From: Thermoplasmata archaeon
GTDB taxonomy: Archaea > Thermoplasmatota > Thermoplasmata > Lutacidiplasmatales > UBA184
Length of the DNA: 64,000 nucleotides
Assembly: GCA_049584655.1 (NCBI GenBank)
Contig: JBAUYF010000007.1
Span: 27,288 to 91,287 of the forward strand
Direction of reading: 5' to 3'
Shown: piece by piece, positions 17,047 through 35,549 of the stretch
Layout of the letters: every line of letters begins with the position of its first letter
How positions within the stretch are numbered: the stretch's first letter is position 1
Position numbers and translations under genes: made by a program
The notes under the pieces: model-generated
The model's input: only the letters and a program-made list of their open reading frames with translations
Told to the model about the DNA's origin: nothing
The model's database searches: none

Positions 17047-17505
17047 ATGTCGTCCGAATCAGCCATCCCCAATCCCGATGCGCTCCGCCTGCGAGAGCGG
17101 CTAGACCTTGCCCTCGAGCGCATCTCGCACCTGCCGGCGTTCGACGGAGTCTACCTCGGTCCATGGTGGGAATTGCCCAGCCTATCTCATCAACTGGGGA
17201 TGGTCGGATGGAAGCGAGCGGTACTTCGACGTGTTGCCGGAGGAGGGGCGGAGCATTGGGGCCATTTGTTCCTGCTCTACTCAGCCGTTGGCCAAACCGC
17301 GGGGGTGGAACCGGAGTCCGATCCCCGAGTGCGATCGCCTCGATACGGCGCCGTACGGAAGGTCGGAGAAATCTCGAAGGTAGCGACGTTCCTGGTCCGA
17401 GCGAGTCACCCGGATGGTTCTCCCTTGCTCGATCTGTTTGCGGAACAGTCGCTGGAGCTTCTGCAGGGCGAAGGGAATTCCTCAACGGTCAGCGAGGTCG
17501 AATGA
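17047..17505 (+). CDS. hypothetical protein
   Basis: Internal ATG of ORF 16819..17505 (MSSESAIPNPDALRLRERL...). The upstream part overlaps the SDR gene antisense and is unlikely to be coding. Confidence 0.45.
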   Translation: MSSESAIPNPDALRLRERLDLALERISHLPAFDGVYLGPWWELPSLSHQLGMVGWKRAVLRRVAGGGAEHWGHLFLLYSAVGQTAGVEPESDPRVRSPRYGAVRKVGEISKVATFLVRASHPDGSPLLDLFAEQSLELLQGEGNSSTVSEVE

Positions 17506-17512
17506 GGAGGAC

Positions 17513-17875
17513 CTAGCGTGTCCCCTTCCCACTTTGCTCCGGGTTGACCGGGCCGGCAAACAACGCGCGAAGGGCCTCCACGTCCTCCGAGCGCAGTCCG
17601 CTCCCCAACACGCCGTCCCACCTACGAATCGGCTCCCCGTTTCGGAAAGCGACCATCGTCGGAACCACATCGATCGAAAAAAGCTCCCAGAGCGGCGAGT
17701 CCGTATCGGTCAAATCGCCGATAGCCGATTGGAAATCCTGTGAGTGTTCGAGAGCCGCGAAAGGCCTCAAAAACGCTCGACAGAACGGACACCAATCCGC
17801 TGAGAAGCAAACTCCCCAACTGCCCTCCCGTCGAAGGCGCTGGCCGTCAAAGTCCGCCGCGCTCAGTCGTTCCAC
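17513..17875 (-). CDS. thioredoxin-fold protein (WCPFC active site)
   Basis: 120 aa. FSADWCPFCRAF is a CxxC redox motif in thioredoxin context, with cis-Pro region VPTMVAF. Confidence 0.75.
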   Translation of the reverse strand: MERLSAADFDGQRLRREGSWGVCFSADWCPFCRAFLRPFAALEHSQDFQSAIGDLTDTDSPLWELFSIDVVPTMVAFRNGEPIRRWDGVLGSGLRSEDVEALRALFAGPVNPEQSGKGTR

Positions 17876-18005
17876 AGCGAGTTATCGCGAACGTCTCCAT
17901 AAGCTCGACCTGGACGCGGGACGACGACGCTCGCAGCCCTGGCCGATGTGGAAGCCACAGGGGAGCGGAGCGGGGGCTCGAGAATCAGCAGGTACTTGAG
18001 CCTCT

Positions 18006-18935
18006 TTGAATTGCATCCCACCGAGGGAATCCGAGATGACTTGGCCCGTTCCGATCGAGCGTAAGACCGAGCGAATGTTTCCGCGTCCGTTATCGGGGCG
18101 GATCGAACGTCATCCCTTTCCCAGCCGAGTCTTGCAAGACAACCCGCTTGGGGATCCGGCAGATCGCGAACTTCCGGTCTATATCCCTCCGTCCGGAAAG
18201 ACCGAGGGCCGTCCGCTTCTGGTCCTTCTCTCCGGTTACACAGGGGCGGGATGGATGCATTTCGAACGGTCCCGATGGTTAAACGAGACGCGTGTCGTCC
18301 TTTTAGACCGCTTGATCCGCGCCGGCCGGTTGGCGGAATCGGTCTTGGTCGCCCCGGACTGTTTGACGACACTCGGAGGCAGTCAGTATCTGAATTCGAC
18401 GGCGACCGGACAATACGAGGATTACCTCGTCCAAGAGATCCTTCCGTGGGTCCGCGAAAAATATCACACCGGACCAATGGGCGTCCTCGGAACTTCCAGC
18501 GGAGGATACGGCGCCTTGGTGATGGGCCTTCGCCACCCCGACCTATTTCCTGCCGTGGCGTCGAATGCCGGAGATTGCTACTTCGAGTACGGTTACTTGC
18601 CCGAGTTTCCCATTGACGCGCGCGAGATCCGACGGTCGGGGGGACCGGATAAGTTCCTCGCCCGAATCTTTGAACAACCCATCAGTGACTTCGGACCAAG
18701 AAACCCACTCGCAATCACGCTCGAGCAGGTGGCCTACGCTTCCTGCTACTCGCCGGTCGAGGCTGAGCCGGGGCGTTTCGACCTTCCGTTTGATCTCGAC
18801 TCGGGGGAGCTCGACCTTCCGGTTTGGGCGCGATGGCTGGCCTGGGATCCGGCCCGGATGATCGAGACGGATCGGTACCGAGAGGCGCTGCGCAAGTTAC
18901 GCTACGTGTACGTAGACGGCGGTACGCGAGACTAG
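18006..18935 (+). CDS. putative esterase (esterase D / enterochelin-esterase-like), terminated by in-frame TAG before the catalytic His region
   Basis: LLVLLSGY and nucleophile elbow GTSSGGYGAL. The reading frame continues in-frame after TAG 18933-18935 for 52 codons to TGA 19092-19094, encoding the expected family C-terminus (see findings). Start may be ATG 18036 or 18075. Confidence 0.75.
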   Translation: MNCIPPRESEMTWPVPIERKTERMFPRPLSGRIERHPFPSRVLQDNPLGDPADRELPVYIPPSGKTEGRPLLVLLSGYTGAGWMHFERSRWLNETRVVLLDRLIRAGRLAESVLVAPDCLTTLGGSQYLNSTATGQYEDYLVQEILPWVREKYHTGPMGVLGTSSGGYGALVMGLRHPDLFPAVASNAGDCYFEYGYLPEFPIDAREIRRSGGPDKFLARIFEQPISDFGPRNPLAITLEQVAYASCYSPVEAEPGRFDLPFDLDSGELDLPVWARWLAWDPARMIETDRYREALRKLRYVYVDGGTRD

Positions 18936-19214
18936 TATTTTCTCGATCTCGGGGCCCGGGTATTCGCAGCGCGGGCGAAACGGCAGGGAGTCACCGTCGA
19001 CCATCAAGAGTTCGACGGCGTGCACGGCGATGGCGGTCGGCGTTACGAAGCGATGTACACGGGCGTCCTCCGCGCTTTGGGCTTCCCGTCTTGAAACTCC
19101 GATCTCTCAAACCGACGCAAGACCTAAGAGCCCGAGAATCGACCGTAGGGGCGTAATGCCGTCCGATCACGGAGGTTCGACGACTTTGCCCGGCGCCGAG
19201 GGGAGGGAACGGCG

Positions 19215-20021: not shown

Positions 20022-20738
20022 TCACGATTTTGACGGCGAACTCCGACGAAGACCATCCAGGTCGTGCTTCAACAGATCGAGCTCATGGACCGCCACATCG
20101 CTTTCACCTTCCGAAGCGAGCGGAGTGAGGGGAATGGCCGCCCGGGCCGGAGGGGGAGGAGGCGGCGGAGGAGGCAAGAACGAAGTCGCCGGGCCGGCCA
20201 CGGATGCCGCCTTCACGGAGACCCCCCGTACGCCCCCCGGGTCCAACCTTCGAGACTTCGAAGAAATCACCGCCGGAGTACGGGGAGGGGGTGACGGAAG
20301 TGTCCGTAGGGATCCCGCGGAGGTCGATTTTCTTGGCGGGGCCGTTGGAGTTTCCTCCGGTTCATCCTCCTCGGCGAAATAGGAAATGACTCCGCCAACA
20401 CCGGCCACGATTCCGAGCACCAAGAACAAGATCCACAGATGGAAACCGCCGGCACCCACCGTCGGCTCGAGCGACCAGGTGAGAAGGGCTCCGACCAGCA
20501 GGATCCAGGATGGGAAGAGCAGCGGGAAGCAGCCCCCGATGCGGCGGAAGAAATCATTCGGGGCGCGCCGTTCTGCTGGATCCGGTCGACCATGTACATC
20601 GGGAAGGGGCCGACCGGTAACGCGGGGGGCGGGCGGGTCCGGGGAGGACGCAGGCGTCAGGGCGTCTTCGTCCCAATCGGGGGCATACATGCTGTGGGGA
20701 GCCATCGGCGCAATCTGGAATAATTCGAGGAGGGCCAA
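20022..20738 (-). CDS. proline-rich membrane protein (hypothetical)
   Basis: 238 aa with two central TM helices flanked by Pro-rich disordered arms. Includes nine consecutive Pro codons at 20148-20174. Confidence 0.5.
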   Translation of the reverse strand: MALLELFQIAPMAPHSMYAPDWDEDALTPASSPDPPAPRVTGRPLPDVHGRPDPAERRAPNDFFRRIGGCFPLLFPSWILLVGALLTWSLEPTVGAGGFHLWILFLVLGIVAGVGGVISYFAEEDEPEETPTAPPRKSTSAGSLRTLPSPPPRTPAVISSKSRRLDPGGVRGVSVKAASVAGPATSFLPPPPPPPPPARAAIPLTPLASEGESDVAVHELDLLKHDLDGLRRSSPSKS

Positions 20739-20742
20739 TTCA

Positions 20743-21111
20743 ATGTATCGCCGCTGTGGCGAGGCAGGGTGGCCCTGGTCGACTTCGACTCGTAAGGGGA
20801 CGGTCTACCGCCGAACGGGGCTGGGCTTATGCGGAACTACTTCCTATCCCGAAGCCGGAGGATTTCTGCCGCACTACACGTTGGCTCCCGCCTCGCCCAC
20901 TCGAGATCCAGAGAGGGAATTCGACCTTTGTTCTCGTTGCATGGTCGAACCCGAGATTATTCGGGTGGTCGCCGTAAAGAAATCCGGGCTTGCCTTGGGT
21001 TCCGATGCCAATCCAGCCGTTATCAAGGTCCCGCACACGTCCTACGATTTCGCGCCGCGACCAATTCCGTGCATCTCGTGTGCCCGGATACTATCCGCGG
21101 ACGACGATTGA
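20743..21111 (+). CDS. hypothetical Cys-rich protein
   Basis: Internal ATG 20743 preceded by GAGGAGGG. MYRRCGEAGW...CSRC...CISC suggests metal binding. The upstream part of ORF 20386..21111 is antisense to 20022..20738. Confidence 0.4.
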   Translation: MYRRCGEAGWPWSTSTRKGTVYRRTGLGLCGTTSYPEAGGFLPHYTLAPASPTRDPEREFDLCSRCMVEPEIIRVVAVKKSGLALGSDANPAVIKVPHTSYDFAPRPIPCISCARILSADDD

Positions 21112-21122
21112 ACTCCGGAACG

Positions 21123-21488
21123 CTACCGCTTCGCGACGAGAAACAAGATCCCGCTGATCAAGAGGCAGAGGGAGGCCAGGATCGCAAGAACGCCGGACGC
21201 AAAACCTAACGCGAGCCATCCGACGACCGCCATTACCACGAGGATGATCCCGGCCGCCAAACTCTCGTCGCCCCATCGTGACCTTCCGAGAATCGCAAAA
21301 AATCCGGCGATAAGCCCGACGACAATGAAAACGATCGACTGATCCAGGGACGAGAACGACGCCCCCGCTCGATGAGTCGCGAGGAAAAAGGCGCCCTTGA
21401 AGAAGTCAAAGATGCCGTCTAAGACCAGTAAGGCAGCCCCCAGCAAGCCAAACAGCAATCCAAGCGGGCGGTCCGAGCGGTACGTCAC
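21123..21488 (-). CDS. hypothetical four-TM membrane protein
   Basis: 121 aa with four hydrophobic helices. Confidence 0.55.
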   Translation of the reverse strand: MTYRSDRPLGLLFGLLGAALLVLDGIFDFFKGAFFLATHRAGASFSSLDQSIVFIVVGLIAGFFAILGRSRWGDESLAAGIILVVMAVVGWLALGFASGVLAILASLCLLISGILFLVAKR

Positions 21489-26525: not shown

Positions 26526-26595
26526 GGCGTCTCGAACGAGTTCTCCGATTCGCCAGGAACGGGTTTTGGGGACCCGAACCTCTCAGGTCCCCTAC

Positions 26596-31791: not shown

Positions 31792-32847
31792 TCAGAATCG
31801 ACGGGCGGCGGCGCCGCGCGCCAGTCGGTCGAGTAGCGTGTGATACGGCGAGGGTCGGATCGGCTCGAGGGCCTGGACAGCGCGCTCCGCCCACCGCGAA
31901 GCTTCTTCCGCCACTACCGTAGCGGCTCCCGTTGACTCGGTCAATTCATGCAAGCGCAGGAGATCCTTGGCGTGTTTGCGGCGGAGCCGGAACAGCCGGT
32001 CAAATTCTTCCTTCTGGCTCGACCCCAGTCGCTGATAAGCCTCGAGAGAGACGAGCGTGGGATTCCCCTCACGAAGGTCCGTGTAGAGCGGCTTCCCTAA
32101 CAGATCTGCATCGCCGAAGACATCGAGCAGGTCGTCGCGGATCTGGAACGCAATCCCCAGGGCGCGTCCGTACGTCGCACAGGCGTCAATGACATCCGAG
32201 GGGGCACCGGAGATCTCGGCCACTGAAGCGAGCGCAGCCGCGACGATCGCGGCCGTCTTGCGCTCCACGACCCGGAAATAGTGTTCCCGTCCTGAGGTCA
32301 GGTCGAACCGACTCGATTCCTGCAAGACTTCCCCTTCGACGAGGTCCGCGCATGCCTCGCCGCATCGCAAGATCACGGTCTTTGGATACTCCGCTGCAAG
32401 TTCGAAAGCCCGGACGAATAGGAAGTCCCCGGAGACAATAGCCATCGGAACGCCGAACGCACGGGGCATCGAGGGACGTCCTCGACGTAGCTCGGCGTGG
32501 TCGATCACGTCATCGTGGACGAGCGTGGCGGTATGGATCAACTGGAATGCGGCGGCCAAGGAGTGGATCGGGCGCGTTTCCTCGTGACCGAGGGCCCGGT
32601 ACAGTACTGCCATGAGGAGGGGACGGACTCGCTTGCCACCGGTGCTGCACGCGTAGGTAGCTGATTCGGTCAGCTGCGGATAGGTGGATCGGAGCACTTG
32701 GTGAAGTCGCCAATCGATATCGGAAAGGTCGTGGACCAGCGCCGGAAGAAGTTCGGAGATATGCTCGAGCGCCTCGACCCCCAGCGTTTCCGTAACGAGA
32801 ACTTCAAGAGGAGGCTCGGCTGGCTCGGCGGGGACCGGGGACGTCAC
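31792..32847 (-). CDS. trans-polyprenyl diphosphate synthase (GGPP synthase family)
   Basis: FARM LVHDDVIDHAELRRG and SARM FQIRDDLLD. GTG start at 32847 overlaps the upstream TGA (GTGA). The longer ORF 31792..33348 is rejected. Confidence 0.85.
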   Translation of the reverse strand: MTSPVPAEPAEPPLEVLVTETLGVEALEHISELLPALVHDLSDIDWRLHQVLRSTYPQLTESATYACSTGGKRVRPLLMAVLYRALGHEETRPIHSLAAAFQLIHTATLVHDDVIDHAELRRGRPSMPRAFGVPMAIVSGDFLFVRAFELAAEYPKTVILRCGEACADLVEGEVLQESSRFDLTSGREHYFRVVERKTAAIVAAALASVAEISGAPSDVIDACATYGRALGIAFQIRDDLLDVFGDADLLGKPLYTDLREGNPTLVSLEAYQRLGSSQKEEFDRLFRLRRKHAKDLLRLHELTESTGAATVVAEEASRWAERAVQALEPIRPSPYHTLLDRLARGAAARRF

Positions 32848-33944
32848 GCGGCGCTCCCGAGCCGAGTCGGTCGACGCAGGCGCATCATCGTGTCGAGACC
32901 GGAAGCCCCGATATAGCGCATGCCTAGCGCGAGTAACGGATTGTAGTGGACAATCGTGTCCCCCAAGAGCTTTATCCGATGCGCATTCGCGAGCGGCCCC
33001 GCCAGATGGGCGCGGAGGAGTGTGTCGTATTCCGCAAGGCTCGTTCCCTCCCGAACACTCTTGGCTGCGACGACCCCCGCATCTCGTCCGGAGATCATGG
33101 CGGTCGGGATACCCCCACCGTTGGTCGCCATCACCAGATTGGCCGCGTCGCCGACGAACAGGGCGCGACCCCGCACCGCGCTCGCCGGGGGTGGCCCGAT
33201 CGGAACCCACCAGCGCGTGAGGTCGAATGGTTCGTTCAACCCGAAACGCTGGCGGAAGTGCTCGAGCAGTCGACTTAGCGTTTGGCCGCGGGGGAGCCGC
33301 GCGACCCCTAACCCCACGTTGGCGTCGCTCTCCTTCGGAATGACCCACGCGTAGCCGCCCGGAGCCACCCGCCCGAAGTAGAGGGCGATCTCGTCCGCGA
33401 AGTGGCCCTCTACGGTCGCCGTGATCATCCGAAACATCTCACGAGGAATCGCGAACCCCGTTCCTCGCGCGACGGTCGAGATCGGACCGTCCGCGCCGAT
33501 GATCACCTCCGCGCGGACCGTCGTGCCGCCGGAGAAGGAGATCTCCGAGTCCTGCACACGCGTTACGCCGCACGGAAATCGCAGCTCTGCGCCCGCGCCT
33601 TCCGCTTGATACGCGAGGGCCTTATCGAACGCTCGGCGAGATACCGAGTAACCGTCCAGCGGGAACCGATAGCGACGCCCGTAGGGCGAAACGCAGACCA
33701 TCCAGTGCGTCGCGCGCAGGATCGTTTCGCTCGGTATATCGAACGAATCATCGATAACCTCGGGGCAATCGAACAGATCCTTGAGTTCGGTCGGTGTGGG
33801 GAGGAACTCCCCACACTGTACGGGATGGCCCAGTTCTGGGCGCTGATCGACGAGGAGCGTCTTAGCGCCGTTCCGCGCGGCAAATTTCGCCGCCAAGCTC
33901 CCGCCCGGGCCGGCTCCCACGACCACGACGTCGAAATGCTCCAC
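32844..33944 (-). CDS. geranylgeranyl reductase family flavoprotein
   Basis: FDVVVVGAGPGGSLAA FAD-binding motif, GEFLP, and GDAANLVMATNGGGI. GTG start lies 6 nt after the nuoN stop. Confidence 0.85.
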   Translation of the reverse strand: MEHFDVVVVGAGPGGSLAAKFAARNGAKTLLVDQRPELGHPVQCGEFLPTPTELKDLFDCPEVIDDSFDIPSETILRATHWMVCVSPYGRRYRFPLDGYSVSRRAFDKALAYQAEGAGAELRFPCGVTRVQDSEISFSGGTTVRAEVIIGADGPISTVARGTGFAIPREMFRMITATVEGHFADEIALYFGRVAPGGYAWVIPKESDANVGLGVARLPRGQTLSRLLEHFRQRFGLNEPFDLTRWWVPIGPPPASAVRGRALFVGDAANLVMATNGGGIPTAMISGRDAGVVAAKSVREGTSLAEYDTLLRAHLAGPLANAHRIKLLGDTIVHYNPLLALGMRYIGASGLDTMMRLRRPTRLGSAA

Positions 33945-33950
33945 GGCCCT

Positions 33951-35549
33951 TCACGCCCCGACCGCCACGAAATGCTGTGCGGCGGAAGAGATCGCGGCAA
34001 GGACCGGCTGCGGGTAAATGCCCAGCGCCACGATCGCAAAGGTCGCGAGGCCGATCGCCATCGCGCGACCGTACCCGATTCCTCCGAGCGGTAAAGGATC
34101 GGCACCGGACGCGCCCTGAATACCTGCGGTATGCGGAGAACCCGCGATGGCACGGTCGGGTTGGTCCATGTACATCACCTTGAGGACGCGTGCGTAGTAG
34201 AAGACGGATAGGGCGCTATTGAGCAGCCCCGCGATCGCAAGATAGACGAAGAACCCTTGCGCCTGGATCGCGGACGAGAAGAGAATGAATTTCGACACGA
34301 AGCCGATCGTGAGGGGAACGCCGGCGAGCGAGAGTAGCATCAGCGCGAACGACGTACCCAGCAACGGTCGTCGAACCCCGAATCCCTTCCAGTCTTCGAT
34401 GAGGGGGCCGACGCCGAGCGATGCCGCCGCCGCCACGACGAGAAACGCGCCGGCTTTCATGAAGACATGGGCGAAGATCTGGAGGGTAGCACCCGTGATC
34501 GCCGGGGCGGTTCCGATCGTGATCCCGATCAGCATGTAGCCTGCTTGCGAGATCGACGAATAGGCGAGCATTCGCTTCATCGAGCGCTGCATCAAGGCCA
34601 AGACATTCCCCACGGTCATCGTCAGCACGGCCATCGCGCCGAGCGTGATCTGTAGTATCGGCCCGAGGTCCGTGGGGGTCGACCCATTTCCGATCGGACT
34701 TGTCGCGGAGCTTACAAAGAGGACCGGACCCAAGAAGACGAGGAAGAAGGCGAAAAGGCCGATTTTCTTTGTCCCACCGGCGAGGAACGCCGAGACATCA
34801 TTCGGCGCGCCGTCGTAGACATCGACCGCCCATGCGTGGAAGGGAACGGCCGTTACCTTGAACGCCAAGCCGGCGATCAGAAACCCATAGCCGACGAGTA
34901 CGAGGTTCGGCAAGCCGACGGAGCCGCCTTCGGCTCGGATCGCGAAGAGATTCGTCGTTCCATAGGCTCCGAAGATCAGTGACGCTCCGTAGAACGAGAG
35001 CACCGTCGAGAGCGCGCCGATAATGTAGAACTTCATCGCGGCTTCCATGCCACGCGGATCCTTCCGCAGGTAGCCGACCATCAGATACGTGGAGATCCCC
35101 GTGATCTCGATCGCGATCAGCAGAAAGATCAGGTCGGCTGCCACCGCGACCAAGAGCATTCCAAGGGTCGCGATCAAAAGAAGCCCGAAGAACGTCGCCG
35201 CTCCGGGGTCGCGCGAGGGGCGCGAGAGCGACGCGAGTGCTACGAGTAAGGCGCTGACGAGAAAGATCCCTTGGAAGATCAGACCCAACGAGCTGAACGT
35301 AAAGAGGGCAGTCAGTGAAGGATGGAGAGGATCGATCTGCGACGCGGGGATCGTCGCCATCCCGGAGAGCGGCGAAAAGCGTAGGTCCGCCACGACCAAC
35401 AGTAACGCAGCCAGTGTACCCACGACCGCGACCCCGCCGAGCACTTCGAGCCGCCGGACCCCGACGACCTCGAGGAGAAAGACGAGAAGCGCGGCCGCGA
35501 GGAGGATGAGCTCGGGCAGCCATGGAAGGGCGAACGAGGCGAGATTCAT
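33951..35549 (-). CDS. nuoN: NADH-quinone oxidoreductase subunit N
   Basis: 532 aa, 14-TM antiporter-like subunit. Last gene of the contiguous nuo gene string. Confidence 0.85.
   Translation of the reverse strand: MNLASFALPWLPELILLAAALLVFLLEVVGVRRLEVLGGVAVVGTLAALLLVVADLRFSPLSGMATIPASQIDPLHPSLTALFTFSSLGLIFQGIFLVSALLVALASLSRPSRDPGAATFFGLLLIATLGMLLVAVAADLIFLLIAIEITGISTYLMVGYLRKDPRGMEAAMKFYIIGALSTVLSFYGASLIFGAYGTTNLFAIRAEGGSVGLPNLVLVGYGFLIAGLAFKVTAVPFHAWAVDVYDGAPNDVSAFLAGGTKKIGLFAFFLVFLGPVLFVSSATSPIGNGSTPTDLGPILQITLGAMAVLTMTVGNVLALMQRSMKRMLAYSSISQAGYMLIGITIGTAPAITGATLQIFAHVFMKAGAFLVVAAAASLGVGPLIEDWKGFGVRRPLLGTSFALMLLSLAGVPLTIGFVSKFILFSSAIQAQGFFVYLAIAGLLNSALSVFYYARVLKVMYMDQPDRAIAGSPHTAGIQGASGADPLPLGGIGYGRAMAIGLATFAIVALGIYPQPVLAAISSAAQHFVAVGA

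Follow-up and report, generated by a model that had tools for sequence, protein, structure and literature searches.

A probably naturally segregating in-frame TAG codon truncates a putative esterase gene in an uncultured Thermoplasmata archaeon

The analyzed DNA (referred to below as the window) is a 64-kb stretch with a GC content of 62% which, judging from its sequence, belongs to an uncultured Thermoplasmata archaeon. Its forward strand carries a gene of the alpha/beta-hydrolase type that is interrupted by a TAG codon (...GGC GGT ACG CGA GAC TAG TAT TTT CTC GAT...). In the list of open reading frames (ORFs) the interrupted gene appears as 18006..18935 (+), with a TTG start and a predicted product of 309 aa. 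Translation of the segment 18006-19094 gives a protein that reaches ...YVYVDGGTRD at the TAG and then continues in the same frame for 52 codons, encoding YFLDLGARVFAARAKRQGVTVDHQEFDGVHGDGGRRYEAMYTGVLRALGFPS, before a TGA codon (19092-19094) is encountered. The ORF, its TAG and the 52-codon continuation to the TGA had been noted in a preliminary description of the locus and were reproduced exactly by translation. The product lengths given there (309 and 362 aa) are valid for the mechanically defined ORF; the likely start of the esterase gene is the ATG at position 18036, the close homologues and the NCBI entry all beginning with MTWPVPIERK, and the lengths are therefore 299 aa for the truncated protein and 352 aa for the intact one. 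The exact 299-aa product is already deposited at NCBI under the name "alpha/beta hydrolase-fold protein" (MGA8511528.1; P0121), and a second 299-aa variant is present in the protein collection derived from Logan single-run assemblies. The features of the locus are listed in Table 1.

Table 1. Features of the interrupted esterase gene and of two polymorphic sites within it (positions refer to the window)
Feature	Position	Strand	Evidence
Esterase codons 1-299, the part translated in this strain	18036..18932	+	PF00756 (E 8.6e-15); start of homologues; deposited protein MGA8511528.1
Ser154 codon, predicted nucleophile within the elbow G-T-S-S-G-G	18495..18497	+	G152, T153, S154, S155 and G156 invariant (127/127); located after strand 148-153 (AF2)
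A/C SNP, Asp194 (window, L005) or Ala194 (L001-L004)	18616	+	All four allele combinations with codon 300
Asp299 codon, predicted catalytic acid, last residue before the stop	18930..18932	+	Invariant (127/127); loop after strand 290-296
Premature TAG, codon 300, formerly GAG (Glu), G-to-T at 18933	18933..18935	+	T/G across loci; outgroups L006-L010 GAG; Glu in 125/125
Orphaned 52-codon tail and original TGA	18936..19094	+	Identical to P0125 residues 301-352; E 5e-24 vs. P0004; GC2 0.46, GC3 0.71
Synonymous G/T SNP, Gly306	18953	+	G in 3/3 TAG sequences, T in 3/3 GAG sequences; outgroups G
His330 codon, predicted catalytic histidine, downstream of the stop	19023..19025	+	Invariant in 125/125 full-length homologues; follows last core strand 322-326

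The Pfam family PF00756 ("Putative esterase") is matched by the N-terminal part of the protein (residues 43-183; score 55.6 bits, with a cutoff of 22). When the sequence was fused across the stop and compared with the esterase profile, a check recommended in the preliminary description, the score was 58.9 bits (cutoff 22) and the match reached residue 330, covering profile positions 7-235 of 251. The 52-aa tail by itself produced no Pfam match, because it is too short for a profile; the evidence for its homology comes from pairwise and family alignments. It aligns without gaps to the C-terminus (residues 301-352) of P0004, an intact orthologue with 69% identity, and all of its 52 residues are identical to those of P0125, the intact sister allele. 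The nucleotide composition of the tail (Table 1) follows a coding-like pattern. Similarity of this extent is far beyond chance, which indicates that the frame downstream of the TAG is no fortuitous open frame, and the earlier assignment of this segment to the C-terminus of the family holds.

With the fused sequence as query, 3,754 significant database matches were obtained, the best of which are proteins of 352-362 aa; those that are named come from metagenome-assembled genomes (MAGs) of Thermoplasmata archaeon, one of them assigned to Ca. Lutacidiplasmatales. The label "esterase-D/enterochelin-esterase-like", previously proposed for the product, is justified at the level of the Pfam family only, since the scores obtained with the models of S-formylglutathione hydrolase (FghA/FrmB, TIGR02821) and enterochelin esterase (Fes, NF007758) are 36.4 and 29.2 bits, below the equivalog cutoffs of 281.7 and 222, respectively. 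With other PF00756 members (alpha/beta hydrolases of the esterase D, feruloyl esterase and antigen 85 type) the intact protein shares a G-x-S-x-G elbow, an invariant Asp and an invariant His, arranged in the canonical order. It differs from them in forming part of its own Thermoplasmata-rich subfamily of proteins of approximately 352-360 aa, and the gene of this particular strain differs in being truncated before the His.

The intact allele was modeled with AF2 using an alignment of 46 sequences (pLDDT 90.4, pTM 0.90). The predicted alpha/beta-hydrolase fold is most similar, according to Foldseek, to PDB 8z91 (E 6e-20, TM 0.79, 24-26% identity), a soil-metagenome-derived esterase that is also the nearest solved structure in sequence (E 4e-27); feruloyl esterases, S-formylglutathione hydrolases and antigen 85 come next. 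No paper on 8z91, or on the assembly and run accessions considered here, was found in the literature. In canonical alpha/beta-hydrolases the catalytic acid is located behind strand 7 and the histidine behind strand 8. We infer that Ser154, Asp299 and His330 constitute the catalytic triad, an assignment that fits this topology, the model and the invariance of the three residues in the family alignment (Table 1).

According to the model, strand 290-296 and the loop containing Asp299 directly precede the stop, and the truncation removes (i) helix 300-316, (ii) the last core strand (322-326), (iii) the loop carrying His330 and (iv) helix 335-347. A full Ser-acid-His triad within one polypeptide, present in the intact proteins P0001 and P0125, is absent from the product of the TAG allele. 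Since both the invariant His330 and a core strand are lost, the 299-aa protein should be inactive, as judged from conservation and predicted structure, and it is probably also unstable. An enzyme consisting of two parts, in which separate translation of the downstream segment supplies what the 299-aa fragment lacks, would be consistent with the open and intact frame of the tail, and is nevertheless so improbable as to be negligible. Downstream of the TAG, the frame contains no ATG, GTG or TTG codon before the GTG of Val329 (19020-19022), and translation from this GTG would give a peptide of 24 residues devoid of helix 300-316 and strand 322-326, which makes a separate complementing fragment implausible. 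Moreover, a split arrangement was found in none of the 125 homologues, and the intact and split states differ by a single nucleotide.

The origin of the stop was traced in a family alignment composed of the window sequence and 127 members (125 full-length proteins and 2 truncated entries). The column corresponding to the stop contains Glu in each of the full-length homologues, and its only two gaps are those of the two truncated entries. At the DNA level, codon 300 is GAG in three near-identical loci (L001, L002 and L005) as well as in five outgroup loci (L006-L010), which represent two lineages whose genes are 83 and 77% identical in nucleotide sequence to that of the window. As Glu is invariant and GAG occurs in sisters and outgroups alike, the stop was made by one G-to-T transversion at position 18933. 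This is the very change that had been guessed from the window sequence, and the comparison of orthologues at this codon, which had been suggested as a check, bears it out.

To establish the status of the base itself, the window was compared with five loci of the same population, showing 99.80-99.99% nucleotide identity to it: L001 (GCA_049584295.1), L002 (SRR28061326), L003 (SRR28061317), L004 (SRR28012030) and L005 (GCA_049280115.1). Position 18933 is occupied by T in the window, in L003 (a Logan assembly; 1 mismatch in 8,858 bp) and in L004 (a Logan assembly; 4 mismatches in 2,022 bp), and by G in L001, L002 and L005. The MAG containing the window and L003 may share a sample; at least L004 represents a distinct run and a distinct haplotype, with 4 other sites at which it differs from the window. 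Across the six sequences, 18933 is perfectly linked to the synonymous SNP located 20 bp downstream (18953), at which the TAG haplotypes retain the ancestral G found in the outgroups. On the strength of its occurrence in two further assemblies from other runs and of this linkage, the T allele is regarded as a real base.

A sequencing or assembly error, with G as the true base and an intact gene, was one of the options previously listed. It would agree with the single-base nature of the difference from contigs that are otherwise 99.8-99.9% identical and read GAG, and it draws on the facts that the consensus sequence of a MAG can hold errors and that the allele is known here from assemblies rather than from reads. 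This option is, however, effectively refuted and retains hardly any probability: the same T was recovered in two Logan single-run assemblies of different runs, one of which (L004) represents another haplotype. Nor would a random error generate the observed haplotype structure, in which three sequences combine T at 18933 with G at 18953 and the other three combine G with T. In addition, 26 substitutions and two 1-bp indels separate the window from L001 over 21 kb. The substitution at 18933 is the only one that creates a stop, the remaining 25 adding none, and neither indel falls within a gene called in L001; the assembly is therefore not generally noisy. An exact scan with a 35-mer covering both alleles (K at position 18933) gave 0 matches in JGI metagenome contigs and 0 matches in the GTDB species-representative genomes. 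The GTDB species representative evidently differs from the scanned 35-mer sequence or is without it.

The use of TAG in the window was assessed on a gene set obtained by a simple GC3-guided selection. TGA is the commonest of the 67 stop codons (30), followed by TAG (19) and TAA (18), and TAG terminates 18 of the 66 other predicted genes (approximately 27%), so the earlier argument that neighboring genes use it as an ordinary stop is correct. Two neighbors of the esterase gene, encoding an SDR protein and a thioredoxin-like protein, have a TAG stop in all three lineages, and each protein ends where expected. The 121-aa gene 21123..21488 ends with TAG in the window and in L006, and with TAA at the same position in L010.

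These observations bear on the possibility, also raised in the preliminary description, that the TAG within the esterase gene is decoded (by pyrrolysine incorporation, a suppressor tRNA or leaky termination) and that the full-length 352-aa enzyme is made. The host belongs to Thermoplasmata, a class that includes the pyrrolysine (Pyl)-using Methanomassiliicoccales (PMC3941956), the tail is perfectly preserved, the TAG allele is apparently common, and the search for pyl and suppressor genes covered the 64-kb window of the genome. The case thus resembles Pyl (UAG) recoding in Methanomassiliicoccales and Methanosarcinaceae in that an in-frame TAG precedes a conserved stretch of reading frame and that the host is one of the Thermoplasmata. 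It differs in that the gene encodes an esterase and not a methylamine methyltransferase, in that the homologues carry Glu, and in that TAG is a frequent ordinary stop here, with no pyl component detected in the window.

Several lines of evidence make recoding or readthrough very unlikely. The proportion of TAG among the stops of the window exceeds the maximum of 11% amber stops recorded in Pyl-using Methanomassiliicoccales (PMC3941956), and TAG and TAA alternate at the orthologous stop of the 121-aa gene. The codon replaces an invariant Glu adjacent to the predicted catalytic Asp, no Pyl-containing members occur among the 125 homologues, and sister strains carry GAG. Within the 64-kb window, no tRNA was identified (ARAGORN) and none of the Rfam families scored up to its gathering threshold, and the RNA downstream of the stop folds no better than shuffled sequences (z = 0.33). 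Absence of pylBCDS has been reported for twelve MAGs of non-methanogenic Thermoplasmata belonging to clades basal to Methanomassiliicoccales (bioRxiv 10.1101/2020.03.09.984617). As for the preserved tail, a young lesion predicts it equally well.

All predicted genes of the window were also scanned for coding-like extensions beyond their stops, and the esterase gene is the only one in which the extension resembles a lost C-terminus. A 368-codon "extension" following 33951..35549 (-) was rejected, as it corresponds to the next gene in the same frame and not to readthrough. In this region (32844-35549, -), the TGA at 33951-33953 is followed by the 368 open codons of gene 32844..33944 (-), whose product begins with ...DVVVVGAGPGG, like an FAD-dependent reductase, and the two ORFs look like separate genes sharing a frame.

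Taken together, the TAG is very probably a real, naturally segregating nonsense allele that truncates the esterase and turns the gene into a nascent pseudogene. A recent nonsense mutation had been among the options listed for the locus, and it is the one favored by the GAG codons of the sister contigs (99.8-99.9% identity) and the outgroups, by the invariance of Glu and by the undamaged tail. As in nonsense pseudogenes generally, the stop is one mutation away from the sense codon of the orthologues and the frame downstream of it is homologous to the missing C-terminus. The proposed course of events is as follows: (i) a G-to-T transversion at 18933 would have changed the GAG codon of the invariant Glu300 to TAG in some members of an environmental population belonging to a single Thermoplasmata species; (ii) translation would now end right after the putative catalytic acid Asp299, with the loss of the last 53 residues, including His330; (iii) the lesion would be young relative to the divergence of the species, yet old or common enough to be found on several backgrounds; and (iv) the esterase may be dispensable in that habitat, or its loss tolerated, and selection would be weak.

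The age of the lesion can be judged from the tail. In comparisons of the two outgroup lineages with the window, its codons show 21 synonymous and 4 non-synonymous differences in one case and 23 and 9 in the other, and this synonymous excess argues for purifying selection on the tail when the gene is intact. In the TAG haplotypes the orphaned tail has acquired no non-synonymous change; as it is without further damage, the lesion is regarded as young.

Three of the six available sequences contain the TAG, which suggests that this allele is not rare. It occurs on more than one haplotype background, and this spread, together with its presence in half of the assemblies, argues that the organism can do without the esterase, or tolerates losing it, in the habitat concerned. 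The TAG allele is combined with Asp194 as well as with Ala194, and the same is true of the GAG allele (Table 1). Position 194 (codon 18615-18617) is Ala in 90% or more of the family, and Asp194, found in the window and in L005, constitutes a second unusual substitution in the gene. Furthermore, L004 shares 17948A, 17971A and 18269A with the GAG contig L005. Such mosaic haplotypes suggest recombination within the population or, alternatively, a partly chimeric consensus assembly of mixed strains.

There is a slim chance that the gene is not dead and that the allele persists at intermediate frequency because an unrecognized suppressor or Pyl-like system of this non-methanogenic lineage decodes part of the UAG codons, allowing some full-length enzyme to be produced, or, in a milder form of the same idea, that the loss is adaptive and maintained by balancing or habitat-specific selection. 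The simplest reading remains that the population tolerates a loss-of-function polymorphism in an accessory hydrolase with which it can dispense. With segregating nonsense pseudogenes of natural prokaryotic populations this polymorphism shares a single-nucleotide change, the coexistence of both alleles at an identity of at least approximately 99.8% and the lack of secondary decay; nothing essential sets it apart from them, its frequency (3/6) and its several backgrounds being slightly notable.

An event of this kind is known and ordinary, and public databases already contain the truncated protein. The entry MGA8511528.1 would be better annotated as a truncated allele or pseudogene of the 352-aa esterase, which matters little beyond annotation. 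For population genomics, the locus offers a clean, small case of ongoing gene loss in an uncultured archaeon, and both alleles are recoverable from public runs, so that their frequencies can be tracked across samples. It is also a warning that the use of pyrrolysine should not be deduced from an in-frame TAG alone when the sequence is that of a Thermoplasmata MAG.

Some further variation was observed in the vicinity of the gene. Half (13 of 26) of the substitutions between the window and L001 are concentrated within 1.55 kb (17400-18953), seven of them in the 1,059-bp esterase gene, and this SNP cluster suggests that the region around the esterase either is a recombination tract or has come under relaxed constraint. 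An extra T at position 20770, which appears to be intergenic, is present in the window and L003 and absent from L001, L002 and L005. An extra G at 26568 of the window, a position compared with L001 only, likewise appears intergenic. The predicted product of the ORF 20022-20738 (-) is of low complexity and rich in proline (ten prolines follow each other at one point), and its middle segment is hydrophobic; the sister MAGs call it as a 227-aa gene, which gave no Pfam match.
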